From an uncultured Gammaproteobacteria bacterium (GTDB taxonomy: Bacteria; Patescibacteriota; Patescibacteriia; SG8-24): 64,000 nucleotides of DNA. Position 1 is the stretch's first letter, and each line of letters starts with the position of its first letter. Shown piece after piece: positions 44,852-60,228 of this stretch. Where the stretch lies: positions 12,389-76,388 of the forward strand of contig CAYOXM010000004.1 in the NCBI GenBank assembly GCA_964407925.1. The letters run 5' to 3'. The translations under genes and the position numbers were made by a program. The notes beneath the pieces are model-generated. The model made no database searches. It saw nothing but the letters and a program-made list of their open reading frames with translations, and was not told where the DNA came from.

Positions 44852-46924
44852 TCAGCGAATCGCGTCGGGAACGTTCGCCTCGAGCTCGTCGAGCCACATC
44901 CGTGCCGTGGCGTCCGACGGCATCCGCCAGTCGCCGCGCGGCGAGATTGCCGTGAGGCCGACCTTCGGACCGTCGGGCAGGCACGAACGCTTGAACTGGC
45001 TGCCGACGAAACGCTGAAGGAACAGCCGCAGCCAGCGTTTGACGGTCGCGAGGTCGTACTTCCCGTCGAAGGCGTGGAGCGCCAGCCGCGCGATGCGCGA
45101 CGGACGGTAGCCCCAGCGGACCGTGCAGTAGCCGAAGAAGTCGTGGAGCTCGTACGGCCCGATGATCGACTCCGTCTTCTGCGCGATCTTCCCGTGCTCG
45201 TCCGGCGGAAGGAGTTCCGGGGAAATCTCCGTGTCGAGGACGTCCTTGAGGACCGCCCGGACTTCGGGCTCCTTCGCGTAGATGACTTCCGCCGTCCAGC
45301 CGATGAGGAACGAGATGAGCGTCTTCGGGACGCCCGCGTTCACGCCGTAGTGGCTGGCATGGTCGCCGAACATCGTGCACCAGCCGAGCAGGAGCTCGGA
45401 CAAGTCGCCGGTGCCGAGCACCATCGCGCCCTCGAATCCGGAGACCGAAAAGAGCACGTGCTTCCTCGACCACGCCTGGACGTTCTCGAAGAACGTCCGA
45501 CGGCGCAGGGTCACGACGCTCGCGTCCCCCGCGGCGATGCCGGCCTTGATCTCCGCGATGAAGGCGCCGGCGTCGTCGATGCCGAGGTCACGGAAGGTCT
45601 GCGAGGAGAGGTCGCGGATAGAAATTTCCCGGAACGTCCCGCCGATCGCCTTGATGAGCCGACAGGCGTTCTGATAGGTCCGGTCCGTGGTCCCGAAGCC
45701 GGGCATGGTGACGCCGACGATGTTCGTGCGCGGCAGACCAAGCAGGTCCATGGCATAGGCAGCCACGAGAATCGCCTGCGTCGAGTCCTGCCCGCCGGAG
45801 ACGCCGATGACGAGCTTGCGCATATCCGGGCGGAGCGACTCGAGCTTCCGCGCGAGCGCCGTCGCCTGGATCATGAACGTCTCCCGGCACCGCTCGTCCC
45901 GCCGCTTGGGGTCTGACGGCACGAAGGGGTGCGGTTCGACGGAGCGCTTGAGCGCGCGGTACGTCGCCGCCGCCGCGCCGGATTCCGTACGGTGGCGGAA
46001 CGCCGCGGTGCGGAACGGCGTACGGCGGTCGCTCGCATTCTGGTGGAACGAGCTCTGCCGGATGCGATCCTGTTGCAGCGATTCGAGGTCCACGTCGACG
46101 ACCGCGCTCGCGCCCTTGAGCGAGAACCGTTCGGTCCGCGCGACGAGCGCGCCGCGTTCGGCGACGTACCCGTCGCCGTCCCACGAAAGGTCGGTCGACG
46201 ACTCGCCGAAACCCGCGGCGCTGTACATTTGCACCGCGAGATTGCGTCCGGACGATCCCACGACGAGCTGCTCGCGGTACTCGGCCTTGCCGATCGTGAT
46301 GTTCGACGCCGACAGGTTGGCGAGCACGGTCGCGCCCGCGAGGGCGGCGACGGTCGACGGCGGAATCGGGACCCAGATGTCCTCGCACACTTCCGTATGC
46401 AGGACGAATCCCGAACCGTCGGTCGCCGCGACGAGGACGTCGGTACCGAACGGCACGACGTCCTCGTGGATGCGAATTTCCCTGCTGCGCGCCTCGCATC
46501 CGCGGGCGAAGTGCCGGAGTTCGTAGAACTCGCGGTACTCGGGCGGGTACGACTTCGGCGCGACGGCGATGACGTGGCCGTTCTGGCAGGTGACCGCGCA
46601 GTTGTAGACGGCGTCGTCCACGAGGAGCGGCATGCCTACCGAGAACAGCAGGTCGCGCCAACGGGTCGAATTCGCCAGAATCGAACTCAAGGCGCGCAAG
46701 GCGCCTTCGAGCAGGACCTGCGAATGGAACAGGTCGGCGCAACTGTAACCGGTGAGCCCGAGCTCGGGACAGAGCGCGTAGCAGGCGCCGTCCTTGTATG
46801 CGACGTCGAGCGCGTCGACGTGCGCTGCGGCGTTCGCCGCGGGATCGGCAACGGTCACGCGCGGAATGACGACCGCGACGCGACTGAAACCGTGTTCGAG
46901 TACGTTCAAGAAATCGTCTGACAT
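44852..46924 (-). CDS. nadE: glutamine-dependent NAD+ synthetase (nitrilase-like glutaminase domain + NAD synthetase domain)
   Basis: ~690 aa long-form NadE: N-terminal CN-hydrolase domain, C-terminal PP-loop 'GVSGGQDST'. Start chosen at the second Met (MSDDF), preceded by GAAGGAGG. Confidence 0.9.
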   Translation of the reverse strand: MSDDFLNVLEHGFSRVAVVIPRVTVADPAANAAAHVDALDVAYKDGACYALCPELGLTGYSCADLFHSQVLLEGALRALSSILANSTRWRDLLFSVGMPLLVDDAVYNCAVTCQNGHVIAVAPKSYPPEYREFYELRHFARGCEARSREIRIHEDVVPFGTDVLVAATDGSGFVLHTEVCEDIWVPIPPSTVAALAGATVLANLSASNITIGKAEYREQLVVGSSGRNLAVQMYSAAGFGESSTDLSWDGDGYVAERGALVARTERFSLKGASAVVDVDLESLQQDRIRQSSFHQNASDRRTPFRTAAFRHRTESGAAAATYRALKRSVEPHPFVPSDPKRRDERCRETFMIQATALARKLESLRPDMRKLVIGVSGGQDSTQAILVAAYAMDLLGLPRTNIVGVTMPGFGTTDRTYQNACRLIKAIGGTFREISIRDLSSQTFRDLGIDDAGAFIAEIKAGIAAGDASVVTLRRRTFFENVQAWSRKHVLFSVSGFEGAMVLGTGDLSELLLGWCTMFGDHASHYGVNAGVPKTLISFLIGWTAEVIYAKEPEVRAVLKDVLDTEISPELLPPDEHGKIAQKTESIIGPYELHDFFGYCTVRWGYRPSRIARLALHAFDGKYDLATVKRWLRLFLQRFVGSQFKRSCLPDGPKVGLTAISPRGDWRMPSDATARMWLDELEANVPDAIR

Positions 46925-47052
46925 GCCGCGATCCTCCTTCGCCATGCTGGTTGACGTTGCGTCGTTGTAAGGAGCGGGTCCTCCTTTCTCCGTGCCGCTG
47001 CGGCAAGCGGCGCGGGGAAAGGAGGCCGTGCCCGGAAAGGCACGGCGCGACC

Positions 47053-48015
47053 TCAGTCGTCGATCTGGTCGTCCGCCTCGTCGTCATCGTCGAAGATGAC
47101 GCGGGCGATCGAGCGATTCAGCGAGATGACTTCGAAAGGAGCGAGCTTCTCCACCTTGGCGGCGGTCTTGGGGCAGGAATCCGTGATCCACACCTTGGTA
47201 AATCCGGCATTCAGGAATTTCTTCCATGAGTCCTTCGGACAGCTGGCATGCGTCGCGAAGGCGCTCACCTTCGACGCGCCCGCGTCGAGGAGCGCCTTGC
47301 CGCACTCGATGGTCGTGCCGCCGGACTTGATGATGTCGTCGACGATGACCACGTGACGGCCGCGCACCTCGCCCTCGCGGACCGTGACGATGCGCCTGTC
47401 GCCGTCACGGACCTTGTCGCAGATCACGAGAGGAAACGCGCGGTCGCCCTTCTTCGATCCGTCGAACATCGCCTTGAACCGCTTCCAGGCGCCGATGTCG
47501 GGAAACGCGATCGACACGTCTTCGCCCTCGAGCGCGGTCTTCAGGTACTTCGTGCCGGTCTTGTACCGGGTCACGACGTTGTCGCCGAAGTAGTGCCGCT
47601 GGCCGAGCGCGTGGATGTCGTAGAGCACGACCTCCACGGGACCGCTCCGGCAGAGCGGCGTGGCGGAAAGCATCCGCGCGAACGTCTTCGCGGTGACCAC
47701 TTGGCTTTCGGTGTCGCCGCGCTCGAGCGTCCCGGTCGGGTAGTACGGCATGATCACCTTGATCTCCCTCGCGCCGAGGCGAGGCAAGGTATAGATGACG
47801 CTCAGCTGGCCGAAGACGTCCTCGACCGAGTCGAACGAGGCGAGAAAGGCGGCGCGCTTCTGGCGGATGCGCTCCTCCTTGCCGACGAAGACGTTCGGCC
47901 ACCCGTCCTCGAACGTCTTCCAGGAAATCTTGCCAAGGTGGATCTTGTCGTTCGCCTCGCAGATCTTCTGCGCGAGGCCCTTCATCTGCGGGCAGTGGAA
48001 AAGGACCGCTTCCAT
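47053..48015 (-). CDS. prs: ribose-phosphate pyrophosphokinase (PRPP synthetase) with acidic C-terminal tail
   Basis: Start MEAVLFHCPQMKGLAQKI; PRPP-binding 'VVIVDDIIKSGGT'. Unusual DDDDEADDQIDD tail. Confidence 0.8.
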   Translation of the reverse strand: MEAVLFHCPQMKGLAQKICEANDKIHLGKISWKTFEDGWPNVFVGKEERIRQKRAAFLASFDSVEDVFGQLSVIYTLPRLGAREIKVIMPYYPTGTLERGDTESQVVTAKTFARMLSATPLCRSGPVEVVLYDIHALGQRHYFGDNVVTRYKTGTKYLKTALEGEDVSIAFPDIGAWKRFKAMFDGSKKGDRAFPLVICDKVRDGDRRIVTVREGEVRGRHVVIVDDIIKSGGTTIECGKALLDAGASKVSAFATHASCPKDSWKKFLNAGFTKVWITDSCPKTAAKVEKLAPFEVISLNRSIARVIFDDDDEADDQIDD

Positions 48016-48084
48016 CGTGTTCCCTCCTGACTGATGTCGCACGTGCACACTTCCGCGTTTCGTCCTCGGCAGCCGACGACCGTC

Positions 48085-48125
48085 GGCAACCGAGGAAAAA
48101 CGCGGAGACGGCAGACCGTCTCCGC
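48085..48125 (-). terminator. terminator downstream of pncB, upstream of prs
   Basis: Minus strand GCGGAGACGG-TCTG-CCGTCTCCGC-GTTTTT, then a second nested hairpin and the AGGAGGG SD of prs. Coordinates approximate. Confidence 0.6.
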
Positions 48126-48130
48126 GCGGC

Positions 48131-49393
48131 TCATACCACGCACTCGCGCCGTTCTACGTTGGCGTACCCGAAAATCTTTTTGAAGAGATCGACGGTCGCC
48201 GCGTCGCCCGAGGCCTTGTCGAGATTGTTCGACAGCTTCACGAGCGGATGCCCGTTGGCCTCGGTCGCCTTCACGACGAACGAACCGAACGTCGGCAGTC
48301 CCGTGTCGTTCGAGAGCGTCGTCCCCCATCCCGGCTTCATCGCCTTGAAGCGATTGCGAAAGGTGAGATGGAGCGCGATGACCGAATCGACGTCGAGCCC
48401 GTCGGTCGGGTTCAGGACCTTCGTCCGCGGGTCGACGCCGTGCGACCTGAGGTACGCCTCGAGCATCTCTCCCTCGTGGAACGGATTGCCCGAGTCGACC
48501 TTGTAGACGTTCCAGGCCGCGGCGCGTTCGGCGCCGAAGTCCTCGAAGAACGCCTTGGAGCCGTACGTGTCGAGCACCGCCGTGCTCCAGCGCGGGCCGA
48601 ACGTCGCCATCCAGTCGTCCATGAACTTCATGTGCGACGCGCGGATTTCCGCCCGGAGTCCCCAGTGGATGCCGGAATAGACCATCGGGCCTTGATGCGC
48701 GAACGTGCCGATGACCGGCCAGCCGAGTTCCTTGGCCATCCAGACGTGCGAGATGCCGGCCAGTTGTCCGGGGATTTCCCGGACGAGCGTCTCGTCGATG
48801 AACCGCGACAGTTCGTAGCTGAATTGCCGCCGCAGGCCGAACTCCCCGAACTGGAGGTCCGGGTACTGCCGCAGGAGCTCGATCTTGCGACCGAGCCTGC
48901 GGCCGGCCTCGGCCCAGAGCCGGCGTTCCGTGACGCCATGCTGACGCATCACCCACTCGCCGTTCAGCTTGGTGATGATCGGCAGGATGAAGGTTTCCCA
49001 GTCCATGCCGTCGCACCAGGCGCCATGCGGCTCGATGCGATATGTCGGCCCGTCGGGCGACGCGACCTTCTCGATGTCGATCGCCGACAGCCAGTTCGTC
49101 TGGAGATAGCCGAGATACTCGTCGGGCAGGAAGCCGTTCGGGACGCCGACGCCGAACTTGGCGCGGAGCCACTCGATTTCCTCCGCCGTGTAGGCGAGAC
49201 GGCTGACATGCCCGATCTCCTCGCGGAGCCGGCCCTCGTCAATGCGTTCGCCGAGCACGATGCCCTTGGAGCGGTTCTTGAATCCCCAGCGGACGTGGAC
49301 GTCGCGATGCCGCAGCCAGGCGAAGTAGCCCATGGTGACGTAGTACCAGTCCTTCTGCAGGCGGCTGCTCACGATCGGCTTGTCGTTGGTCAT
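48131..49393 (-). CDS. pncB: nicotinate phosphoribosyltransferase
   Basis: 420 aa; NAPRTase-family length and features. Own SD (GGAGGAG) and TACAAT -10-like box upstream. Confidence 0.85.
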   Translation of the reverse strand: MTNDKPIVSSRLQKDWYYVTMGYFAWLRHRDVHVRWGFKNRSKGIVLGERIDEGRLREEIGHVSRLAYTAEEIEWLRAKFGVGVPNGFLPDEYLGYLQTNWLSAIDIEKVASPDGPTYRIEPHGAWCDGMDWETFILPIITKLNGEWVMRQHGVTERRLWAEAGRRLGRKIELLRQYPDLQFGEFGLRRQFSYELSRFIDETLVREIPGQLAGISHVWMAKELGWPVIGTFAHQGPMVYSGIHWGLRAEIRASHMKFMDDWMATFGPRWSTAVLDTYGSKAFFEDFGAERAAAWNVYKVDSGNPFHEGEMLEAYLRSHGVDPRTKVLNPTDGLDVDSVIALHLTFRNRFKAMKPGWGTTLSNDTGLPTFGSFVVKATEANGHPLVKLSNNLDKASGDAATVDLFKKIFGYANVERRECVV

Positions 49394-49509
49394 GTCTCCT
49401 CCAAAATCGGGGCGTGGTATGGATTGTAACGATCAGGCTTGATCTTCCGCGGGCGACCGGATGTCACCGGCGGAAGAAGAAGGGCAAGCGCGAGGCTTGC
49501 CGTGCCGCG

Positions 49510-50037
49510 CTAGGCGGCGAGCGCGTTCCATTCGCTGCGGAGCATCGACATGCGCACCATGTCGTGATACACGCCGTCGAGCAGGTACTCCTGGCGAAGG
49601 ACGCCCTCCTGGACGAAGCCCATCTTGGCGTACGTCGTCCGTGAACGGACGTTCTCGACGAAAACGTTCAGGTAGACCTTGTTGAGGTCGAGCTGCGTGG
49701 GATCGAAGGCCACGGCGAGCGCCGCGCTGATCGCCGCCCTGCCATACCCCTTGCCGCGGTCATCCTTCCGGAAGACGAGCAGGCCGAGACGGGCGGTGCG
49801 AAGGTGCTCGTCGATCTCATGGAGGCCGACCGTGCCGACGAGGACGCCGTCGGCATCCACGCCCCACAGCCGCTCGGCGGGATTCGCGAGCACCTTTTCG
49901 AGGTATGCGCGCTGCCGTGGGACCGTCACCGGCGCGGAGAAGAACTTGAGGTTCCTCGTCGCCCCGGGATCGAGCGCGTCGACCATGCGCGCGGCGTCAT
50001 CCGCACTCACGGGAACCAACCGGATCGTCATGGCTTC
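49510..50037 (-). CDS. GNAT family N-acetyltransferase (RimJ/RimL-like)
   Basis: Internal start MTIRLVPVSADD of ORF 49510..50511 (the upstream 158 codons are R-rich noise). 'LLVFRKDDRGKGYGRAAI' acetyl-CoA binding motif. Confidence 0.8.
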   Translation of the reverse strand, partial: EAMTIRLVPVSADDAARMVDALDPGATRNLKFFSAPVTVPRQRAYLEKVLANPAERLWGVDADGVLVGTVGLHEIDEHLRTARLGLLVFRKDDRGKGYGRAAISAALAVAFDPTQLDLNKVYLNVFVENVRSRTTYAKMGFVQEGVLRQEYLLDGVYHDMVRMSMLRSEWNALAA

Positions 50038-50042
50038 CTCCT

Positions 50043-51431
50043 TCACGGAAACAGGTCTTCGGCGAGTTTTGCCGCCATGTCGCGATGCGGCGAGAAGGCG
50101 ATCTCGACCGAGGCCACGCGACTCGGCCGAATGCGCATCGCGCAGACTTCGCCGCGGTCCTGGCCGTCGACGAACGCGCGGATCGGACGCTTCCGGAAAT
50201 CGAGCGATGCGATCTCGACCGACGAATCGAGCGAGAGCGGCGCCGACTTCCAGCCGCGCGGCGAGAACACGTTGTTGCCGACGATGAGCCAGCCGCGCGT
50301 GTCGACGAGGAGCGGCGTCGCGCCCATCGAGCGCGCGTAACCGGTGGAACCGGCCGCGGTGCTCACGAGCGCGCCATCCGCGACGAGCTTTTCGATGCGC
50401 GCGTGGCCGTCGACTTTCACCTCGAGCCAGGCGCACTGCCCGGTGCCGCAGGCGACCCACGCGTCGTTGAACGCGTAGGAGCCGAAACGGTCGCCGCGCA
50501 GGTCCTGGCACTCGACGTAAAGCTGCGGGAGCTGCTGCACGCGGAGACTGTCGAAGAAGAAGCCGGGATCCTGCAGGTCGTCGTCGATCTCGTTCAGCAG
50601 ATATCCGCGGTGTCCCGCGTTCAGCCCGACGAACGGCAGGCGGCGACGCCAGTGCTTGCGGATGGCCCGCAGCATGGTGCCGTCGCCGCCGATGGCGACG
50701 AAGCAGTTGGCCGAATCTTCCGTCGTCGCGATGCCGGACAGCCGTTCTGCCAGCGCCTTCGCGCGCGGATTGCGCTCGTCGACGAAGACGAACGGTCGCG
50801 GGTCACCGAGGCGCAAGGTCGTCGTCTGCGACGGCGTGCCGCCGCGGTACAGGTTGTACCGCTCCATGTAGGCCGCGACCTCCGGGACGACCCGGTCGGC
50901 ATACGGTTGCCGCCGGAACGCCCGTTCGCGGACGTCAGTGCTCGAACCGCCGTTCATGCCGTCGATCACGATGCGCTGCGGCGGGAGGTCTGCGGGGTTG
51001 CAGGGGAAGTCGTTGCGCGTCATCACGACGAAGCGGCAGGTACGCCACAGGCGCTCCCCCTCCTCCCACTGCCGCTGGATGGGCGACTGCCCGTCCTTGC
51101 CGCCGGCAATCAGGTCCGTGCCGACCACGTGCCAGATTTCGCCGCCTTCTCGCAAACCGTACAGCTCGTCGAGCCGGTGGGTCTTCGTGAAGGTGGCGTG
51201 CTCGAGGTCGAACAAGTCGACCTGCGCCTTGGGGATGCCGCGGAAGGTCAGGTCCGCCATCACCGCCCGATGGACGGGCTCGATGTCGTTGGTCTGCTCC
51301 TTGTCCGGGCGCGGCCCGCACGGGATGACGATGATCTTTTCGAAATGCGGGACGAGCGCCGCGGCGACGTCGCGATGATGCGCCGCCGACGGGTTGAAAC
51401 TCCCGCCGAACAGGGCGACTTTTGCGGTCAT
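50043..51431 (-). CDS. nadD-nadK: fusion protein: NaMN/NMN adenylyltransferase (NadD-like) N-terminal domain + NAD kinase (NadK) C-terminal domain
   Basis: N-terminus 'VALFGGSFNPSAAHHRD' (nucleotidyltransferase (H/T)xGH-type motif, NadD-like). C-terminal half 'NCFVAIGGDGTMLRAI', 'NDAWV', 'TAAGSTGYARSMGATPL' (NAD kinase GGDG and conserved C-terminal motifs). Confidence 0.8.
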   Translation of the reverse strand: MTAKVALFGGSFNPSAAHHRDVAAALVPHFEKIIVIPCGPRPDKEQTNDIEPVHRAVMADLTFRGIPKAQVDLFDLEHATFTKTHRLDELYGLREGGEIWHVVGTDLIAGGKDGQSPIQRQWEEGERLWRTCRFVVMTRNDFPCNPADLPPQRIVIDGMNGGSSTDVRERAFRRQPYADRVVPEVAAYMERYNLYRGGTPSQTTTLRLGDPRPFVFVDERNPRAKALAERLSGIATTEDSANCFVAIGGDGTMLRAIRKHWRRRLPFVGLNAGHRGYLLNEIDDDLQDPGFFFDSLRVQQLPQLYVECQDLRGDRFGSYAFNDAWVACGTGQCAWLEVKVDGHARIEKLVADGALVSTAAGSTGYARSMGATPLLVDTRGWLIVGNNVFSPRGWKSAPLSLDSSVEIASLDFRKRPIRAFVDGQDRGEVCAMRIRPSRVASVEIAFSPHRDMAAKLAEDLFP

Positions 51432-51463
51432 TGCGCACCTCTTGGATGGAGGTCAAGGAACGT

Positions 51464-51490
51464 TTGCCGCAAGCGACATGCTTGCGGCAA
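51464..51490 (-). promoter_or_regulatory. perfect 11-bp inverted repeat TTGCCGCAAGC-N5-GCTTGCGGCAA upstream of nadD-nadK (candidate operator)
   Basis: Located ~35 nt upstream of the ATG, just upstream of a TTGACC box and the AGAGGTG SD; not followed by a U-run, so unlikely to be a terminator. Confidence 0.5.
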
Positions 51491-51590
51491 GAGAGCTTGC
51501 GCCGACGCCGCCGTCAGCGGAAATTCTCTGAAAAGATATCCGAGGACGGACCGCGCACGGCGGTCCGCCCCGGGGTCGTGACGAAAGGGA

Positions 51591-52376
51591 TCACTTTGCC
51601 GCGAGCTGGTCGGCGACGATGATGCGCACGCCGGCGTCTGCCATGAGCAGCGTCATCTTCTCCTCGAGGCCGGGAATCGGCACCGAGCGCGTCGCGTCCT
51701 TGATGACGCAGACCTCGAAGCCGCGCTTGGCGAAACCGAGGGCGCTGTAGCCGACGCAGTGGGTGAAGGCGTTGCCGTCCATGAAGACGCGCTTCACGCC
51801 CTCGTCCCGCATCTGCTCCGCAAGACCGGTCGTCCTGCCGAGGTTGTCGCTCTCGGCGCTGTACGAGTCGCACAGCGGGTCGTACCCCTTGAGGAGCACG
51901 AGACGGAAACCGAGGTCGCGGAGCGCGGGATGGAGCTCGGCCTCTTCGGAACCGATCCCGCCGTGCTCCGGCCAGAGCGTCTGCTTCTTGTCGGTCGTCC
52001 CCTCGAGGTAGTGCATCAGGTCGAACAGGCTGATGCCTGCCGCGCGAATGACGGCGGACGGATCCGTGCCGTCATTGATCCAGCCGAGCACGCGGTCGAG
52101 GGTGAGGTCGTCGTACGGCTTGAAGCCGACGTACGACGACACCCAGGAGACGTGCCCTCGCGGATGCTGGTCGAGCGAGGCGAACCGCCGCTCGACCGGG
52201 AAGAACGACGTATTCCGGAGGACGACGGGGAGAATCTCGTGGCCGCCGGGTACCGGGAGCCCGCCGCCTTTGACCGGCTTTCCGTCCCAGGAATGGTCGG
52301 GCATGAAAGCGGTCTGGACGTCGGTGTGAAGGATTGCATCGGTCTCCGGATCGATGACGATTGTGCCGTTATGCAT
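51591..52376 (-). CDS. pncA: isochorismatase-family nicotinamidase
   Basis: Internal start MHNGTIVIDPETDA...; 'VQTAFMPDHSWDGKP' and Cys-containing 'THCVGYSALGF' typical of PncA-like nicotinamidases. Confidence 0.7.
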   Translation of the reverse strand: MHNGTIVIDPETDAILHTDVQTAFMPDHSWDGKPVKGGGLPVPGGHEILPVVLRNTSFFPVERRFASLDQHPRGHVSWVSSYVGFKPYDDLTLDRVLGWINDGTDPSAVIRAAGISLFDLMHYLEGTTDKKQTLWPEHGGIGSEEAELHPALRDLGFRLVLLKGYDPLCDSYSAESDNLGRTTGLAEQMRDEGVKRVFMDGNAFTHCVGYSALGFAKRGFEVCVIKDATRSVPIPGLEEKMTLLMADAGVRIIVADQLAAK

Positions 52377-52407
52377 CGGACGTTCCTTTCGTGGTGGAAG
52401 GAGCTGA

Positions 52408-52460
52408 TATCCGCCGACTTTGGCGAAAAAACGCGAAGGCGGATAACGCCGAACGCTATC
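52408..52460 (-). promoter_or_regulatory. inverted repeats upstream of pncA (TATCCGCC-N22-GGCGGATA; GATAACGCC-G-AACGCTATC): candidate NrtR/regulator site
   Basis: Two overlapping IR systems in the 119-nt nrtR-pncA gap; the second is a 9-1-9 IR with one mismatch. Confidence 0.4.
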
Positions 52461-52495
52461 GCGTTTCTGACCTTCCGTCAAGGCGGCCGACCGCC

Positions 52496-53167
52496 TTAAA
52501 AGAGCGCGATGTCCGCCTTCCTGCGCGACCGGAAACGGTACAACGCCGCGGGACGATGCGCGCCGCCGCGATCACGCTTTCCGGTATCGGCGAGAAGGTC
52601 GAGGGAGAGGATTTTTTTGCGGAAGTTCCGCTTGTCGAGCGTACGGCCGAGGATGGCCTCGTACGTCGCCTGGAGCGCCGAGAGCGTGAATGCCTCGGGA
52701 AGCAGGCTCCACGCCACGTTCGCGTACTGCAACTTCGCCCGGACGCGCCCGAGCGCGTACCGGAGCATGGACTCGTGGTCGTATGCGAGCCTCGGCAGCG
52801 CGCCGACGGGCCAGAAGCGCACGTCGGCGTACTTCTCGGAGGTACGCAAGCGGACGCCGTCGTGCGGCACGAGCGCGAATGAAGCGATGCTCACCACGCG
52901 GCCGAACGGGTCGCGGCGGGGATCGTCAAACGTGGCGAGCTGCTCGAGGTAGAGGTCGGTGACGCCGGTCTGCTCGCGCAGGATGCGGCGCGCGGCGTCC
53001 TCCGACGTCTCGTCGTCGCCCAGCAGGCCGCCCGGCATCGCCCACCGCCCGGCGAACGGCTTCTTTTTCATCTGGATGAGCAGGACGTGCAGCTCCCCTC
53101 CGCGCACCGTAAAAATGGCGGCATCGACGGCGACCTTGATGTCCTGAGACGAGGGGTGGCGCGGCAT
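52496..53167 (-). CDS. nrtR: Nudix-related transcriptional regulator of NAD metabolism (NrtR-like): Nudix domain + C-terminal winged-helix-like domain
   Basis: 223 aa; N-terminal Nudix fold with degenerate Nudix box (GRWAMPGGLLGDDETSEDAARRILREQTG), ~80-aa C-terminal extension ending ...ALYRF. Sits at the head of the pncA/nadD/pncB/nadE cluster. Confidence 0.6.
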   Translation of the reverse strand: MPRHPSSQDIKVAVDAAIFTVRGGELHVLLIQMKKKPFAGRWAMPGGLLGDDETSEDAARRILREQTGVTDLYLEQLATFDDPRRDPFGRVVSIASFALVPHDGVRLRTSEKYADVRFWPVGALPRLAYDHESMLRYALGRVRAKLQYANVAWSLLPEAFTLSALQATYEAILGRTLDKRNFRKKILSLDLLADTGKRDRGGAHRPAALYRFRSRRKADIALF

Positions 53168-53262
53168 GGTCGTTAGTTAGTGTTCGATGGACGTAAAGTA
53201 GCACCACCCGCCCCGGCGGTCAACCCGCGGCAAAGAAAAAAGGGCCGACGTCGTCGGACCTC

Positions 53263-53913
53263 TCAGTGCGCCGCGCGCGCCGGCACTTCGCCGCCGTTCG
53301 GCAGACAGCAACGGGCGCGCATCCATCCCTTCCCCGCCCCGAAAGCCTCGTGCGGGAACCAGACGACGGCGTCCTGAAGCACCATGCCGCCCCTGCCGAC
53401 CCGGGAATTGCCGCGGACGAAACTCAGCCGAAGCGGCCGCAGTTCCTCCTCGACGACCTGCGCTACGGCAGTCACCGTCAGCGCGCCGAGCAGATGCCGC
53501 TCGTCGCCGCGGGCGCCGCCGTCGACCGCGATGCACGGCGTCGGATCGATTTCCGCCACGGGACGCCGGTCGCGCGTCGTGAGCGCGTCCTTCCCGGGGT
53601 CATAGACGCACCAGGCCGCGCCGAGCAGGTACACGCGCAGCACGAGCGGACCGGTGACGATCACCTGATGGTCAGGCGCGGCCTCGTGGTACTTCCGGAT
53701 GCCCGCCCACTTCTCGTACGACTGCCTGCGGGCGGGGTCGGGCCACGGGACGGCGGCGTCGGACCACGTCGCGACGCCGTTGCCGAAACGCTTCGCGAGA
53801 CGGCCGACGAGCGTCGAGTACGCGCCGAAGACGCGCGCGAAGTTGAACAGCGGACCCTCGACGAGTGCCGCTCCGCCGGAAATGACGTAACGGCTCGGAC
53901 CGGTCATGCGCAT
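53263..53913 (-). CDS. conserved hypothetical protein, paralog A (WC(V)YDP ... FPH motif family)
   Basis: 216-aa ORF; clear paralogy to 54517..55176 (ALVEG..F, WP(D/E)P, YLLG..WCV(Y/H)DP, (W/T)FPH..(F/Y)G.GKG). Followed by a terminator. Confidence 0.6.
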   Translation of the reverse strand: MRMTGPSRYVISGGAALVEGPLFNFARVFGAYSTLVGRLAKRFGNGVATWSDAAVPWPDPARRQSYEKWAGIRKYHEAAPDHQVIVTGPLVLRVYLLGAAWCVYDPGKDALTTRDRRPVAEIDPTPCIAVDGGARGDERHLLGALTVTAVAQVVEEELRPLRLSFVRGNSRVGRGGMVLQDAVVWFPHEAFGAGKGWMRARCCLPNGGEVPARAAH

Positions 53914-54027
53914 TCCTTTCGCAAGGAGCTGTCGGTAAGGATGGCAGGATTACCGCCCTTGTCAACGCCCTGTTCCCCTTCCCGCGGCACGATGTTATCA
54001 TCGGCGCACCGCCCTACGGAGAACGCC

Positions 54028-54453
54028 ATGAAAACGAGAGTCGAGGGAAAACGCGTCATCGTGAGCTTGGAGCGCGGCGATGCCGTGCGCGCGTCGGTCG
54101 AGGCCGTCGCCAAGGAGCGCGGCATTCTCGGCGCCGCGGTGACCGCCATCGGCGCGATCGAGAATCCGGAGCTCGGTTTCTACCGGCTCGACGAAAAACG
54201 CTACGAACGCAAGCGGTTCCCCGGCATCTGGGAGCTGGTGAGCCTGCTCGGCAATGTCACGGCGAAGGACGGCGAGCCGTTCATGCACGCGCACGTCGCC
54301 ATCGGCGGTCCGGATTTCGCCGTCTACGGCGGCCACCTCTTCGACGCCACGACCGGCGTCGTCGTGGAGCTCGTCATCGAACCGTTCGACCGCCCGCTCG
54401 AACGCGTCCTCTGCGAGGACATCGGCCTCCACCGCTGGGAGCCGCAACGCTGA
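54028..54453 (+). CDS. PPC/DUF296 domain protein
   Basis: Internal Met of the GC-frame ORF 53266..54453; 141 aa with PPC-domain features (AIGAIENPELGFY; HAHVAIGGPDFAVYGGHLFDATTGVVVELVI). GGAG SD 9 nt upstream; terminator downstream. Confidence 0.7.
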   Translation: MKTRVEGKRVIVSLERGDAVRASVEAVAKERGILGAAVTAIGAIENPELGFYRLDEKRYERKRFPGIWELVSLLGNVTAKDGEPFMHAHVAIGGPDFAVYGGHLFDATTGVVVELVIEPFDRPLERVLCEDIGLHRWEPQR

Positions 54454-54455
54454 TA

Positions 54456-54483
54456 CCCCCCCGCTGCCGCGGGGGCTTTTTTT
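54456..54483 (+). terminator. terminator after the PPC/DUF296 gene
   Basis: CCCCCCGC-TGC-CGCGGGGG-CTTTTTTT. Confidence 0.8.
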
Positions 54484-54485
54484 AA

Positions 54486-54512
54486 AAAAACAGCCCCGCA
54501 AAATGCGGGGCG
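54486..54512 (-). terminator. terminator after paralog B (convergent with the previous)
   Basis: Minus strand GCCCCGC-ATTTT-GCGGGGC followed by TGTTTTTTT. Confidence 0.75.
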
Positions 54513-54516
54513 CCGG

Positions 54517-55176
54517 TCAGTTCGCCTTCTGGTCCGTATCCGCAGGGTCGCCGTCGGGTTCGACGCAGCGCACGCGGACGAAGTCGCGGCCTTTGCCGTA
54601 GACGGCGTGCGGGAACGTCACGTACGCGACGAGCAGCGCGCGTCCGGTGGCGCGATCGACTCGCGGCCCGCTCGCCTCGAAAGCGAGCCCGAGATGCGCA
54701 AGATTCGCCGTGACGATACGGCGCGCGACAGCGATGTCGCGCTCGTCCGCCATGCCGTACTGGTTCGGCCCGATCTGCTCGCCGTAAATGCAGACGACCG
54801 GTTGCGGCTCGAGGTCGGCGACGTCCTCCCCGAGCGGCGTGGTGATGCGTCCGGTCGCGGGATCATGCACGCACCAGGTCTTGCCGAGCAGGTACGCCTT
54901 CACGGTCATCCTGCCCATCACATGCACGAGCGCCTCGTCCACGACCTCGTAGAGTTCCGCCATCCCGTACCAGGCCTTGCGTGCCGTCGCCTTTCCCGGC
55001 TCGGGCCAAGGAATCTTTTTCTGATGCGCCGGGTGGGCCGTCGAAAGCGTCGTCGCGCCGTCAGCGAACTCCTCGGCGAGCGCGCCGACGAGCTCCTCGT
55101 AGGCATCGAGGATGACGTTCAGGTCGAAACGATTTCCCTCAACGAGGGCGTAACCGTGCATCACGCGCGGGTTCAT
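54517..55176 (-). CDS. conserved hypothetical protein, paralog B
   Basis: C-terminal 219 codons of the artefactual 1167-aa ORF 54517..58020 (a different frame from PBP1A): MNPRVMHGYALVEGNRFDL...WCVHDP...TFPHAVYGKGRDF; paralog of 53263..53913; terminator downstream. Confidence 0.6.
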   Translation of the reverse strand: MNPRVMHGYALVEGNRFDLNVILDAYEELVGALAEEFADGATTLSTAHPAHQKKIPWPEPGKATARKAWYGMAELYEVVDEALVHVMGRMTVKAYLLGKTWCVHDPATGRITTPLGEDVADLEPQPVVCIYGEQIGPNQYGMADERDIAVARRIVTANLAHLGLAFEASGPRVDRATGRALLVAYVTFPHAVYGKGRDFVRVRCVEPDGDPADTDQKAN

Positions 55177-55292
55177 CGGCGTGCTCCTTTCTTTGGAAGG
55201 GACTTGTCCAAGCTTTGCCCTTTCCGCGAGCCTCGTCAACCCCGCGCCGCAAAAGAAAAACCGTCCCGCAATTCTGCGGGACGGCCTGCCGT

Positions 55293-57923
55293 TCAGAACG
55301 GCGACGAGTCGTCGAAGTTTCCGGTCGGCATGGTGCCGACCATCAGCCGCTGCGGCATCCGCCCGCGCTGGAACGGCATGAGCTCTCCCCACGGCGACCG
55401 CACCAGCGTGACGTCGTCCGGCACGGGGAATTCCCGCGCCGGCGTCTCCGGATGCGCCGCCTTCATGAAGGCGAGCCAGATCGGCAGCGCGACGCCGCCG
55501 CCCGTGGCTTCCTTGATGATGGGCTGCGGGGTCATGCGCCCCACCCAGACGCCGACGACGAGGTCCGTGGTGAAACCCATGAACCAGACGTCGCGGAAGT
55601 CGTTGGTGGTACCGGTCTTCGCGGCGGCGGGCCTCTGGAGCTCGCGCACGCGCCTGCCGGTGCCTTGCTCGACCACGCCCTTCATCAGGTACGTGAGCGC
55701 GTAGGCGTCGCCGGCCGGAACGGCCTGCGGCAGTTTCTCCCTCGGCACGGGGTCGTACCGGTAGAGTTCCTTGCCGTCGGCGTCGAGCACGGACGTCAGG
55801 AAGATGCCCGCCTGCTCCGCGCCGGGATGGCGCGGCATCTGCTTTCCGCCGGACGCGATCGTCGCGTAGGCGTAGGTATGCTCCCACGGCGAGAGCTCGG
55901 CCGAACCGACCGCGAGCGGCAGGACGCGTTCGAGCGGCGACGTGATGCCGACCGTCCGCATCGTGCGGATGACCTCCTCGATGCCGTACTTGTAGGCGAG
56001 GCGGACCGAGACGGAGTTCAGCGAGAGCGCGAGCGCCGTCCGGAGGTTCACCATGCCGTAGTACTGCGTCACCGTGTTCGGGCCGCGGTAATTCTGCGGA
56101 CACCAGATGCCGGACGCCGACGGGTAACAACTCGGCCCGTCGAGCACCGTCTCGTCGACCGTCATGCCGTGCATGAGCCCGGTGAGGTAGACGTAGGGCT
56201 TGATCGACGAGCCCGGCTGCCGGTGCGCCATCGTCGCGGCGTTGTACTGGCTCTCGGTGAAGTCGTAGCCGCCGACGAGCGCCTTGAGCTCGCCGGTGTT
56301 CGGGTCGACCGCGACGAGCGCCGACTGGAGCGCCTCGGGATGATCCGGACCGCTCGTGCGGCGCGCGGCGAGCGCGTAGCGCGTGAGGTTCGGCGTCTTG
56401 CCCTTGGGAGCGCCGACGGTTTCGAGCGTCGCGATCTGGACGGACATCAGGTCGCCGACCGCGACTGCGGCCTTCGCCTTCGCCTCCCATTTCGCGACGC
56501 GCGCGGCATCGTCGGGATGCAGCGGGAACGCGGTCCCGCGGACGCAGACCGTCGGCGTGCCGCCGACCGACGCGACGCGCGCCATTTCGATGGCGCCGTC
56601 GACGACGGGTTCGGCGGGGCCGTTGCAGCCCGCGTACTTGGGATCCTTGCCTTCCGGACCGTTCCAGCCGATGCGCCGCTCGAGATCGATGAGCCCGCGT
56701 CGGACCGCCGATTCGGCCGCCCGCTGCATGCGCATATCGATCGTCGTGCGGACCGTGAGCCCCTTCTCGAAGACGGCTTCGTTGCCGTACATCCGCTTGA
56801 GCTCGCGTCGCACGTGATCGCAGAAGTACGGCGCGGCCGTGCGGTTGAGCGGGTCCTCGTGATAGATCATCACGATCTCCTGGGCGCGGGCCTCGTCGGC
56901 CTGCGCCTGGGTGATGGCCCCGGTCTCGACCATCCGTCCGAGCACGTACGCCTGTCTGGCGCGCGCACGATCGTAGTGGGCGTACGGCGAGTCGCGCGAC
57001 GGCGCGCGGGGCAATCCCGCGAGCAGCGCCGCCTCCGCTACCGTGAGCTGGCTCACGTCCTTCGCGAAATAGGTCTGTGCCGCCGCCTGGACGCCGTAGG
57101 CGCCGTGGCCGAGGAAGACGTGGTTCAGGTAGACCTCGAGGATCTTGTCCTTCGACATCGTCTTCTCGATCTCGACGGCGAGCACGATTTCCTGGAGCTT
57201 GCGACGGTAGGTCTTCTCGTTGTTCTTGAGAATGACCTGTTTGATCGCCTGCTGGGTCAGCGTGGACGCGCCCTGCTTGGTGTCGCCGCTCTCGAAGTTC
57301 ACCGACGCCGCGCGGATGATGGCGACGGGATCGATGCCGGTGTGCGTGTAGAAGCTCTTGTCCTCCGCGGCAATGAACGCCTGGCGGACGTGGTTCGGGA
57401 TGCGTTCGAGCGGCACGCGCACGCGGTTCTCGAGCGTGAACGTGCAGACGAGCTCGTTGTCCGCGGAATATACCTGCGTCGTGACCGGCGGACTGTACGC
57501 GACGAGCGCGTTCAAGTCCGACGGCACGCCTTCGGCGATCTTCTTGCGCGCATAGGGCAGCGAGAGCGAACCGAGGAGCGCGAGGCAGGCGAAGAAGAGC
57601 GCGAGCGACCGGAACAGCGCGAAGCGCTTTCCCGGCAGCTCGATCTTCACGATGCGCCAAAAGATGATGCGACCGAATCGCTTCATCTTCCTGCGCTTCT
57701 CCCTGGGCACGCCGCGGATGCGCCATGCCCAACGGTTCGGCGGACGCGTCCTGTAGGGCGGTCCGGCGAGGAGGGCGAAGGCGGCGAAGGCGACCGCGGC
57801 GGGGACGGAGAGCAGGCTGGTACCGACGAACGACTGAACGTTTCGCCAGACCAGCCATGCGCACAGGCCCGCGCCGCAGAGCCAGAGGACGATTCTCACC
57901 CGACGGGCGAACTGGGGCTTCAT
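55293..57923 (-). CDS. mrcA: class A penicillin-binding protein (PBP1A; transglycosylase + transpeptidase)
   Basis: 876 aa; GT51 motifs (EDKSFYTHTGID, GASTLTQQ), transpeptidase SxxK (SSIKP), SxN, KTGT. N-terminal TM; start could be a downstream Met. Confidence 0.9.
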   Translation of the reverse strand: MKPQFARRVRIVLWLCGAGLCAWLVWRNVQSFVGTSLLSVPAAVAFAAFALLAGPPYRTRPPNRWAWRIRGVPREKRRKMKRFGRIIFWRIVKIELPGKRFALFRSLALFFACLALLGSLSLPYARKKIAEGVPSDLNALVAYSPPVTTQVYSADNELVCTFTLENRVRVPLERIPNHVRQAFIAAEDKSFYTHTGIDPVAIIRAASVNFESGDTKQGASTLTQQAIKQVILKNNEKTYRRKLQEIVLAVEIEKTMSKDKILEVYLNHVFLGHGAYGVQAAAQTYFAKDVSQLTVAEAALLAGLPRAPSRDSPYAHYDRARARQAYVLGRMVETGAITQAQADEARAQEIVMIYHEDPLNRTAAPYFCDHVRRELKRMYGNEAVFEKGLTVRTTIDMRMQRAAESAVRRGLIDLERRIGWNGPEGKDPKYAGCNGPAEPVVDGAIEMARVASVGGTPTVCVRGTAFPLHPDDAARVAKWEAKAKAAVAVGDLMSVQIATLETVGAPKGKTPNLTRYALAARRTSGPDHPEALQSALVAVDPNTGELKALVGGYDFTESQYNAATMAHRQPGSSIKPYVYLTGLMHGMTVDETVLDGPSCYPSASGIWCPQNYRGPNTVTQYYGMVNLRTALALSLNSVSVRLAYKYGIEEVIRTMRTVGITSPLERVLPLAVGSAELSPWEHTYAYATIASGGKQMPRHPGAEQAGIFLTSVLDADGKELYRYDPVPREKLPQAVPAGDAYALTYLMKGVVEQGTGRRVRELQRPAAAKTGTTNDFRDVWFMGFTTDLVVGVWVGRMTPQPIIKEATGGGVALPIWLAFMKAAHPETPAREFPVPDDVTLVRSPWGELMPFQRGRMPQRLMVGTMPTGNFDDSSPF

Positions 57924-57967
57924 TTAAGGCTCCTTGTGCGGTCGTTTTGACGGTAAAAAGGACGTGA

Positions 57968-58020
57968 TTCCCGCGTGGCGGGAACATCACAAGGTAGACC
58001 CTCTTCGTCGAAAAAGTCAA
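57968..58020 (-). promoter_or_regulatory. PBP1A promoter region (TTGACT-18-TACCTT) plus 5' UTR hairpin TTCCCGC-GTG-GCGGGAA
   Basis: Shares the 12-mer TTGACTTTTTCG with the GT2-Rieske promoter; the hairpin lies between the -10 and the CAAGGAG SD. Confidence 0.45.
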
Positions 58021-58033
58021 CCGGCCGGAGGAT

Positions 58034-58064
58034 AAAAAAGAGCCCCTTTCGTGAAGAAAGGGGC
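58034..58064 (-). terminator. terminator downstream of the TPR protein gene
   Basis: Minus strand GCCCCTTTC-TTCAC-GAAAGGGGC followed by TCTTTTTTAT. Confidence 0.8.
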
Positions 58065-58068
58065 CGTC

Positions 58069-60228
58069 TCATTTGGCAGGTCGGACCTTGAGGGTCCAAC
58101 CGTCGTGAAGGAACGGGGTGCGAAGCGAGCCGTCGCCGCACGTACCGCCCTTCGTGCGGAGGCACAGGCGGTGCGGGCCGAGCCGGGCGAAGAACGTCAT
58201 CTTCATCCCGGGAAGGACGCTGCCGAGATCCTCCCCGTCGATGACCACCGTGAGTTCCGCCTTGCCATCGACGTTGTCGACGGTGAAGCGGATCTTCCGC
58301 CCCTTGTCGGGTTCGATCTGCGGCGTGAACGGCATCGAGTACTGCGGCGGCTTGACCTCCGGCAGCGTGACGCGCCGGTCGGCGTCCCTCTTCGCCACCG
58401 CCTCAAGCGTCGAGGCAGTGAGCGGGCCGTCGTACGTCTCGCACTTGTACTGACGGTAGAGCGGCAGGAGGACGTTGTTGAACGACCCGCGCATCTCGCG
58501 CACGTCGCGTTCGGCCTTCGCCGTCGCGTCGAGCACCGCCTTCATCGCGTCCGCCTCGTCCGGCGTGAGCGCCGCACCCTCGCCGCCGCGCCCCGCTTTC
58601 GCGATGCGCGCCGACATGTGCGCGAGCCACGTCCCGAGTTCGGCGTGCCGCTTGCCCTGCTCCCTTGCGAGGAGCGCGGACGATGCGGCCGCGCCGTCGA
58701 GGCAGCCCTTTTCCTTGTTGAGGTGCAGGTCGAAAACCGCGTCGTTCGTCGCCTTCTGGAAAGTCGCTCTCGCGTCCTCCATCGTGCCGACGGTCGCCGT
58801 GCTTTCGATGATCGCCCTCAGAAGCTCCTCGCCCCCGAGCGGACCGTTCGCCTGCGTCTCGCCGTCGAGTATCGCGCGGAGCCGAGGATCATCCGGCGCG
58901 AGCCGGGCCGCCTCCTTGTACTCCTTGAGCGCCTCCTTGGCATCGCCGGCCTGCGTCCGCAGGTCGCCACGGAACTTGCGCAGCCGCGCTTCCTTGGGGA
59001 AGCGAGCGAGCGCCGAACCGAGGGCGTCGTACGCGGCATCGCGGTCGCCGGCGGCGCGCAGGCATGCGGCCTCGAGGAACACGACGTTGACATCGCCGGG
59101 AACGAGCTTGGCGACCTCGTGCAGCTCGCCGGCGGCGTCGCGGTAGCGACGGTAACCGGCGTAGAGCGTGGCGAGCTCGCGGCGTGCCTCGACGTGCGTC
59201 GGCCAGAGCGTACGGGCGTCCTCGAAGGCGATGATCGCCTTCGGTTTCAGCTCGAGCGCGATGAGCGACATGCCGAGCCAGTACCGCGTGTCGCCGTCGA
59301 ACGGCCGGACCCCGGCCGCGCGTTCGAGGTATCCTCGGGCGATGTCGGGATTCTTCTCGTGGAGCTCGAGCTTGCCGAGCGCCACGAGCGACCGCACGTC
59401 CTTGGGACGCTTCTCCACCGCGAACTCGTAGTGGAGCCGCGCCAGGCGGCGCTTGTCCGCCTCCTCGAGGAGGTGAGCGTAAAAGCGCTGCGCTTCGGCG
59501 TGCGCGGGATCGATGCGCACCGCGACCTCGGCCATGCCGAGCGCGGTGTCACCGCTGCCGTCGTCCTTGTCCGCGAAGTAGCGGACCAGGGCGCGCGAGT
59601 ACTTCAGGAACGCGAACGCGTCTCCCGTCGGCGGCGTTTCGACGGCTTTCGCCGTCTCCGCCGCGAGCGGGTGACCGCCTGCGGCGAACGCGTCCGCGAC
59701 GGCTTTCGCGAAGAGCGCCTGTACGCGCGCCTGGGACTGCGTGCGAACCGTCCGTCCCGACGCGGTCTTCACCTCGTCGGTGAGATCGCCGGACGCCGTT
59801 CCGCTGCCGACGAGCCTCGCGCCTTCGGGGCGCGCTTCGTAAAGCTCGACGACGAACGTCCACTGCCACGTCTGACCGCTCATGCGGCCGGTGAGGAAGT
59901 GGGTCGCGCCGCGCGACGCGGCGAGCGCGTTCGCGGCGGCGACGTCGAACGGCGTCCCCGCCGCAGGGTACAGTCGCGCCTGTTCCTTCGTCAGGATCAG
60001 CGGACCGTTCAGCGGTTCGACGCCAGGATCGTCCTCGAGCCGTTCCGCGACGATCGCGGGAAGGCCCGTCGCGAGCGCCGAGAGCGACCGCGCCGCCGCC
60101 CCGTTCTGGAGCGGCGTCACGAGCAGCTTGATGCGCGTCGCGGGGACGGCCGGTTGCGCCTTGGCGACATGGACGTCCAAGACGAACGTAAAGAGCAGTA
60201 CGCAAAGAAACAGGATCAGCTTGCGCAT
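58069..60228 (-). CDS. secreted tetratricopeptide-repeat (TPR) protein
   Basis: Start MRKLILFLCVLLFTFVLDVHVAKA (signal peptide); multiple TPR-like helical repeats; strong terminator downstream. Confidence 0.7.
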   Translation of the reverse strand: MRKLILFLCVLLFTFVLDVHVAKAQPAVPATRIKLLVTPLQNGAAARSLSALATGLPAIVAERLEDDPGVEPLNGPLILTKEQARLYPAAGTPFDVAAANALAASRGATHFLTGRMSGQTWQWTFVVELYEARPEGARLVGSGTASGDLTDEVKTASGRTVRTQSQARVQALFAKAVADAFAAGGHPLAAETAKAVETPPTGDAFAFLKYSRALVRYFADKDDGSGDTALGMAEVAVRIDPAHAEAQRFYAHLLEEADKRRLARLHYEFAVEKRPKDVRSLVALGKLELHEKNPDIARGYLERAAGVRPFDGDTRYWLGMSLIALELKPKAIIAFEDARTLWPTHVEARRELATLYAGYRRYRDAAGELHEVAKLVPGDVNVVFLEAACLRAAGDRDAAYDALGSALARFPKEARLRKFRGDLRTQAGDAKEALKEYKEAARLAPDDPRLRAILDGETQANGPLGGEELLRAIIESTATVGTMEDARATFQKATNDAVFDLHLNKEKGCLDGAAASSALLAREQGKRHAELGTWLAHMSARIAKAGRGGEGAALTPDEADAMKAVLDATAKAERDVREMRGSFNNVLLPLYRQYKCETYDGPLTASTLEAVAKRDADRRVTLPEVKPPQYSMPFTPQIEPDKGRKIRFTVDNVDGKAELTVVIDGEDLGSVLPGMKMTFFARLGPHRLCLRTKGGTCGDGSLRTPFLHDGWTLKVRPAK

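Follow-up and report, generated by a model that had tools for sequence, protein, structure and literature searches.

Two Diverged Paralogs of an Undescribed Protein Family Encoded between PBP1A and an NrtR-Headed NAD-Salvage Cluster in an Uncultured Bacterium

Introduction

We describe here a pair of orphan paralogous genes, referred to as A and B, in a 64-kb stretch of DNA (the window, from contig CAYOXM010000004.1 of an uncultured bacterium), where they are sited between the gene of the cell-wall synthase PBP1A and a nicotinamide adenine dinucleotide (NAD) salvage cluster headed by nrtR. The B-type paralog (54517-55176, minus strand, 219 amino acids, isoelectric point (pI) 5.4) is the slower-evolving copy and keeps the ancestral motifs WPEPG, VVDEALVH, KAYLLGKTWCV, LEPQP, FPHAVYGKGR and RVRCV, as well as a C-terminal Asn. 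The A-type paralog (53263-53907, minus strand, pI 9.4) is the faster-evolving copy and comprises 214 amino acids when read from the NCBI-called ATG at 53907; the variant of this open reading frame used in a preliminary description of the locus (53263-53913, minus strand, 216 amino acids) starts two codons upstream of that ATG. In the A protein of the window FPH is still present but the VVDEALVH and C129/Y131 motifs are gone, and the terminal residue is His instead of Asn. The two proteins are 35% identical over 205 residues in BLASTP (E = 2e-38), far above chance, which bears out the earlier view of two homologous but diverged proteins, and the motifs quoted at the time, WCVYDP/WCVHDP and FPHEAFGAGK/FPHAVYGKGR, are indeed present. 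No further family members were found in the window besides A and B.

Between the paralogs lies a PPC/DUF296 gene (54028-54453, plus strand, 141 amino acids), whose product is a clear member of PF03479 (99.7 bits against a cutoff of 25, E = 1.7e-28, profile positions 3-116 of 117). It is arranged tail-to-tail with B and head-to-head with A, the divergent spacer between PPC and A being 120 bp long. The open reading frame positions and the PF03479 match thus agree with the preliminary description, in which a PPC gene, convergent with B and divergent from A, was flanked by the pair.

Results and Discussion

The family to which A and B belong is very small. Among 5.8 billion proteins 12 were matched by B, while a protein search of the same kind with A returned 4, and when 1.84 billion cluster representatives were searched exhaustively with a profile, 67 clusters emerged, 35 of them below 1e-30. 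All of the members found are single-domain proteins of ∼200-230 amino acids and no fusions were seen. Neither A nor B matches Pfam-A or NCBIfam 20 at E ≤ 1, and 56 family members gave no Pfam match at E ≤ 0.1; PADLOC 2.0 and PHROGs 4, scanned with up to 56 members, contain no match either, and sequence and profile searches of the PDB returned chance-level matches only, the best being bS6m (E = 0.043). The earlier statement that the pair could not be assigned to a known family therefore stands. Because it falls outside every described family tested we file the family as new in the sense of undescribed, with reference to the libraries searched, AlphaFold DB and ESM Atlas not being among them. 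A role in anti-phage defence or as a phage protein was considered and rejected, as there is no match in PADLOC, PHROGs or IMG/VR; no relatives on viral contigs were found in IMG/VR, and a narrower alignment search yielded six metagenome loci, none of them viral.

AlphaFold2 models of both proteins are of high confidence, with a predicted local distance difference test score (pLDDT) of 90.5 and a predicted template modelling (TM) score of 0.87 for B, and corresponding values of 88.3 and 0.85 for A. Strands and helices follow in identical order in the two models, beta-alpha-beta-beta-alpha-beta-beta-beta ... alpha-beta-beta, and the family is of a predicted alpha+beta type. A Foldseek comparison of both paralogs, proposed in the preliminary description, produced nothing with E < 0.001 when the A and B models were searched against the PDB and the B model against BFVD, and the best TM values were 0.15-0.25. 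Within the limits of Foldseek on PDB and BFVD, AlphaFold DB not being covered, the predicted fold has no known relative. An internally duplicated two-domain architecture was rejected on the basis of an hhalign comparison of half-profiles (probability 0.4%, E = 0.17), and a hydropathy scan revealed no signal peptide or membrane segment in either protein.

In neighbour-joining trees the B-types and the A-types fall into separate clades, with the single-copy members of the family closer to the B-types. The separation extends to a distant pair at L019 (related loci are designated by such numbers in what follows), whose first gene, P0026, groups with the B-types and whose second, P0040, groups with the A-types, so that the duplication that gave rise to A and B is, judging from the trees, old. 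Both copies are under purifying selection, with ratios of nonsynonymous to synonymous substitution rates (dN/dS) between the window and its relative L001 of 0.15 for B and 0.32 for A; the values for PBP1A, PPC, NrtR and PncA range from 0.15 to 0.20, that of PPC being 0.17. The A-types evolve faster and shed motifs that are typical of B, FPH having become FPR, FPP or FTD in several of them and VVDEALVH having been lost. A pronounced asymmetry in charge is found in seven of seven B/A pairs, even though these are only 30-45% identical to one another: B has a pI of 4.8-5.4 and a net charge of -6 to -10, and A a pI of 9.3-9.8 and a net charge of +5 to +9. Single-copy members are mildly acidic. A further trait is the last residue: of 83 family proteins 32 end in Asn, among them all seven B-types and six of eight A-types. 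This Asn is located ∼15 residues past the cysteine of RVRC and closes a tail that is variable and has low pLDDT, and a docking tail or a C-terminal modification are both possibilities.

Conservation was evaluated over 56 diverse family members, with residue numbers those of B. P126 is invariant (100%), followed by G98 and F188 (98%), G196 (91%), G194 (89%), G14 (88%), P189 (86%), W69, L97 and G132 (82%), W57, H190 and C204 (79%), D18 (77%), R201 (73%), and D123 and R203 (70%). Residues retained family-wide are mainly Gly, Pro and aromatics, to which D18, D123, H190, R201 and C204 are to be added. C102, by comparison, is conserved in fewer than 60% of sequences, its substitutes being L, A, T or V; C129 is not constant, there is wide variation at P106 and W101, and several A-types lack H190. 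The suggestion that the Trp, Cys and Asp of WCVxDP might be catalytic is, accordingly, not supported. Since the Cys and Pro of this motif are not conserved and the cysteines do not co-vary with H190, a Cys/His/Asp hydrolase is unsupported; neither an invariant nucleophilic Cys nor an invariant general-base His is present across the family. A metal or disulfide site was rejected as well, with C102, C129, C204 and H190 showing neither co-variation nor co-conservation.

Related loci were drawn from Logan, JGI and GTDB assemblies and annotated by tblastn, and gene order could be surveyed in about 20 loci out of the 67 clusters, most contigs being under 2 kb. The nearest relatives of the window are L001 and L016, with 75-80% protein identity. 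The full trio B-PPC-A is seen beyond the window in L001 only (B 79% identical), and the PPC-A side alone is present in L016 (A 75% identical). Eight other loci (L003, L004, L005, L010, L012, L015, L019 and L020) have B immediately next to A, without an intervening PPC gene. Where the junctions were read, in L003, L004 (a Candidatus Binatia metagenome-assembled genome) and L005, the spacer is 11-12 nt long and includes a ribosome-binding site (RBS) and no terminator, while in L019 and L020, which represent another lineage, the B-clade gene P0026 and the A-clade gene P0040 are 8 nt apart. Even in a very distant clade, L022, there is a tandem pair of its own (26% identical), with an overlap of 4 nt, and its first member is recognized by the family profile with an hhalign probability of 98.8%. 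Adjacency of the two genes is thus conserved. The preliminary description had envisaged a fixed triad and proposed that its synteny be examined in related genomes; the arrangement does recur, in full in L001 and in part in L016, but the eight loci with adjacent B and A show that it is not fixed. Because PPC is limited to L001 and L016 outside the window and the pair is adjacent at eight loci, the PPC gene is a recent, lineage-specific insertion that split an older two-gene B-A operon and is not part of the conserved unit.

Two further observations concern these relatives. In L001 (12166-12732) and L016 (1216-1761) there is an extra orphan gene between A and nrtR, encoding 181-188 amino acids; the two versions are 45% identical to each other, have no Pfam match and are absent from the window, where nrtR directly follows A. 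L005 (JAVHQX010000025.1) is labelled 'Patescibacteria group bacterium' yet is GC-rich, with a GC content at third codon positions of about 0.9, and shares the order RlmI / pair / NrtR / PncA / NadM-NadK with the Candidatus Binatia genome L004, so that its taxonomic label or binning looks doubtful.

Terminator-like hairpins follow B (54493-54511, minus strand), PPC (54458-54475, plus strand) and A (53245-53257, minus strand), as had been noted previously, those of B and PPC being placed back-to-back and that of A separating the pair from nrtR. The A-nrtR interval holds terminators in L001, L003, L004 and L005 as well. On the other side PBP1A (55293-57923, upstream of B and on the same strand) is separated from B by a terminator with a 13-bp stem (55258-55287, minus strand), and counterparts of this hairpin and its T-run were seen by eye in L001, L003, L004 and L005. 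Putative promoters of B (55211-55239, minus strand; TTGACG, 17 nt, AAAGCT) and of A (53937-53965, minus strand; TTGACA, 17 nt, ATCCTT, located in the PPC-A spacer) were recognized by eye. For B the -35 TTGAC and the AAAGCT box are kept in L001, and for A the stretch TTGACA...TCCTGCCATCCTTA is common to the window and L001; the -10 boxes are weak, with the TTGAC -35 boxes 17 nt upstream of them, and a consensus promoter scan did not report either element. We also noted by eye CTCCTT-like stretches 5-10 nt upstream of AAGGA(G) RBS sequences, with which they could pair, ahead of B (55177-55200), A (53908-53930) and pncA (52377-52400), and also in L001; such pairing may be a general trait of translation initiation regions in the source organism. 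A scan of positions 46000-58500 with Rfam at E ≤ 1 returned just two chance-level matches and no riboswitch or small RNA.

Downstream of A the window contains genes for NrtR (52496-53167), a PncA-like isochorismatase-family protein (51591-52376, minus strand) and a cytidylyltransferase-NAD kinase fusion (50043-51431, minus strand, 462 amino acids). According to Rodionov et al. (2008, PMC2330246) the NrtR consensus is a palindrome of 21 bp built around a GT-N7-AC core. A candidate operator that fits this consensus, a TTAGTGT-N7-ACACTAA-like palindrome of 21 bp with the GT-N7-AC core, is found at 53177-53197, on the -10/+1 region of nrtR, and an equivalent site occupies the same region in eight of the eight loci with nrtR, implying that nrtR is autoregulated through it. 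A weight matrix was built from these eight sites, which scores 22-31 bits at nrtR promoters; it returns 53177-53197 as the sole site in the window, with none at pncA or nadM/nadK, and nothing of 12 bits or more ahead of A or B at any of 12 loci. The operator marks the start of the NrtR-controlled region, which lies downstream of the pair. Control of A and B by NrtR was consequently rejected: there is no operator upstream of them and terminators isolate them. In L001 and L016 there is a second, better NrtR site just past the nrtR stop codon, and NrtR-type sites were noted at 13552-13572 of L001 and 2581-2601 of L016.

Among the NAD genes, the 50043-51431 fusion joins a NadM/NadD-type adenylyltransferase domain to a complete NAD kinase (PF01467, PF01513 and PF20143), would put the last steps to NAD and NADP on one polypeptide, and is also present in L001, L003, L005, L012, L015 and L016. 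Just upstream of its -35 element, at 51464-51490 (minus strand), is a perfect 11-bp inverted repeat, TTGCCGCAAGC-ATGTC-GCTTGCGGCAA, which recurs with the same arms and the spacer ATTCC in L001 but not in L003 or L005; with no relation to the NrtR box, this repeat could serve nadM/nadK as an operator or as an RNA hairpin. The PncA-like protein departs from the usual type, with 261 amino acids and a weak C-terminal isochorismatase match (33 bits, E = 5.8e-8), and its identification as a nicotinamidase is not secure. Its leader (52377-52470, minus strand, ∼85 nt) is kept in seven loci, even where PncA is just 45% identical, and includes an invariant ACCTTCCACCA...GAAAGG element able to sequester the RBS and an upstream stem, TTATCCGCC/GGCGGATAA, in which at least one change looks compensatory (TCCGCG/CGCGGA in L012). 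The leader, which may be a cis-regulatory RNA, has no Rfam match, and no credible consensus structure emerged from RNAalifold on the seven sequences.

How is the pair to be explained? That it might serve the NAD-salvage/NrtR system, for example as a two-subunit enzyme or binder of pyridine nucleotide or ADP-ribose, is suggested by its position upstream of nrtR-pncA-nadM/nadK(-GNAT-pncB-prs) in the window, L001, L003, L004, L005, L012 and L015 (and that of A in L016), by its persistence next to nrtR in L005 despite the missing PBP1A, and by the family-wide retention of H190, D18, D123 and R201. All eight linked loci belong, however, to one lineage (PBP1A 64-69% identical), so that the linkage may be inherited synteny. 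At every locus inspected a terminator intervenes between A and nrtR, the NrtR box that marks nrtR in 8/8 loci is upstream of A or B in 0/12, and the pair is unlinked from nrtR in L019, where unrelated genes on the other strand come next, in L013, where a single B-like gene is found near PBP1A without A or nrtR, and at the single-copy loci, which have no NAD context. An NAD function is, in our estimation, unlikely, and we rate no higher the idea that A and B are cytoplasmic factors for cell-envelope synthesis that are tied to PBP1A. In favour of this idea, PBP1A is followed in the same orientation by both paralogs, or by one B-like gene alone, in the window, L001, L003, L004, L010, L013 and L014, a distant single member (L007/L008) resides among genes for Mur ligases, an FtsI-type penicillin-binding protein, FtsEX and DivIC, downstream of HtrA-like and CDP-alcohol phosphatidyltransferase genes, and another clade always comes after a prepilin-like gene (L002, L009 and L017). 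Envelope genes are commonplace, and three such contexts are therefore not significant; moreover, a strong terminator follows PBP1A, B has a promoter-like element of its own, neither protein has a signal peptide or membrane segment, PBP1A is missing upstream in L005, and the PBP1A-linked loci again are all of one lineage. Elsewhere the contexts are prepilin-like genes, dcw-type genes (L007) or unknown genes (L006 and L011), and Pfam searches of the neighbours of single-copy members gave nothing informative save a thioredoxin-like protein. Because the contexts outside one lineage are unrelated, gene neighbourhood provides no firm functional link, and the adjacency of the pair to its neighbours is best read as inherited synteny. 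With regard to the NAD genes in particular, the sole NrtR site of the window at nrtR and the isolating terminators reduce the link to synteny only; the adjacency to the NrtR cluster noted in the preliminary description is real as gene order, with no regulatory link detected.

Two other explanations are considerably less likely. One holds that A and B are HORMA-like or roadblock/longin-like peptide-binding adaptors that heterodimerize in the manner of Atg13-Atg101 or Mad2-p31comet, the Asn tail providing the safety belt or closure element. The order of strands and helices in the models resembles that of HORMA domains, the HORMA domain of Atg13 (4j2g_B) is the top PDB match for A and ranks 17th for B in Foldseek, and paralog pairing and a flexible tail are compatible with such a role. 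The argument is built on that topology and on Foldseek matches at noise level, however (E of 0.1-0.5, probability 0.06-0.08, TM 0.15-0.17, root-mean-square deviation about 18 Å). No other HORMA structure is among the top 50 matches listed, the models do not superpose globally on solved HORMA domains, Pfam (for A and B at E ≤ 1 and for 56 members at E ≤ 0.1) and PADLOC, which we assume to include HORMA models, have no match, and no Trip13/Pch2-like ATPase was seen nearby; all in all we consider adaptors of this kind very unlikely. Still more improbable is a fixed three-gene module in which B, PPC and A form an enzyme pair with a small binding protein. The trio in the window and L001, the PPC-A side in L016, purifying selection on PPC and its 120-bp divergent spacer with A would all be accounted for, but synteny largely refutes the proposal, PPC being missing between the paralogs at the eight loci described above, including all of those less than 50% identical to window B, and it is encoded on the opposite strand with its own terminator. 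PPC/DUF296 (PF03479), moreover, concerns the middle gene only, which has no sequence relation to A or B and is not conserved with them past the nearest relatives.

The explanation that we favour, with a probability of about 0.45, is that A and B constitute a cytoplasmic protein of two subunits that stands by itself and belongs to a new family, with B as the ancestral-like subunit and A as its basic and in part degenerate counterpart. Originally the two genes would have made up a small, self-contained operon in the order B-A, with coupled translation and a terminator on either side; in the lineage of the window the PPC gene would have entered between B and A, with A acquiring its own promoter. 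The products are probably subunits of a soluble heteromer of the alpha+beta family. If any ligand or catalytic site exists B would be the competent subunit, the site being built from D18, D123, H190 and R201, while A, basic and diverged, would pair with the acidic B, the histidine having frequently been lost from A. The C-terminal ∼14 residues form a flexible tail that usually has Asn as its last residue and that probably docks onto a client protein or onto the other subunit. A more specific version, in which a heteromer with a new fold uses the D18/D123/H190/R201 site and the mobile Asn tail for a new activity, as a small-molecule enzyme or sensor that serves the neighbouring NAD/ADP-ribose metabolism or as a tail-docking adaptor that would operate in the way of a HORMA closure switch while being unrelated to HORMA, is conceivable although we would not expect it to be correct.

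Parallels to such an organization are available. Atg13-Atg101, a HORMA pair, and ARPC2-ARPC4 of the Arp2/3 complex are paralogous heterodimers in which one copy is degenerate. As in Atg13-Atg101 and ARPC2-ARPC4, A and B are diverged paralogs kept together over the long term, one copy conserved and the other evolving faster with loss of motifs, and the weak top Foldseek matches of the A model as well as of the B model include 4j2g_B and 1tyq_D. The similarity is not significant (TM 0.15-0.25), however, so that the analogy is one of organization, for a pairing of A and B that is itself predicted. A second comparison is with members of the NrtR regulon, as the pair adjoins an nrtR-pncA-nadM/nadK-pncB-prs cluster with the 21-bp GT-N7-AC palindrome at its nrtR promoter; unlike such members A and B have no NrtR box, are followed by a terminator before nrtR, and have kin outside the lineage that are located away from NAD genes.

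Several points weigh against a two-subunit protein. Single-copy members exist (L002, L009, L011, L013, L006 and L007), and heteromerization is therefore not obligatory for the fold. Basic A could bind nucleic acid or an anionic ligand independently of B, and the separate transcription of A and B in the lineage of the window loosens their stoichiometric coupling. The two proteins differ only weakly in charge at L019, with pI values of 7.1 and 8.6, and at L022, with values of 4.8 and 6.0. The neighbour-joining trees are crude, with the A-types of the window and L001 changing position between runs, probably as a result of long branches, and the number of pairs, about nine, is too small for a measurement of A-B coevolution.

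Concluding Remarks

The practical outcome of this work is a corrected first reading of the locus: PPC is not a partner of the paralogs, and the adjacency of the pair to the NAD cluster is not regulatory. The significance is limited by the extreme rarity of the family, which has no assignable function, and metagenomes hold many comparable orphan families. If the models hold, A and B nevertheless represent a compact, confidently foldable family without relatives, in either sequence or structure, across the curated libraries searched, and one that would bear the marks of an obligate two-subunit protein, namely an old duplication, adjacency, opposite charges and one degenerate copy. Together with the unusual conserved C-terminal Asn these traits would make the family a tractable target for structural genomics and for the search for a new activity in an uncultured, Candidatus Binatia-related lineage.

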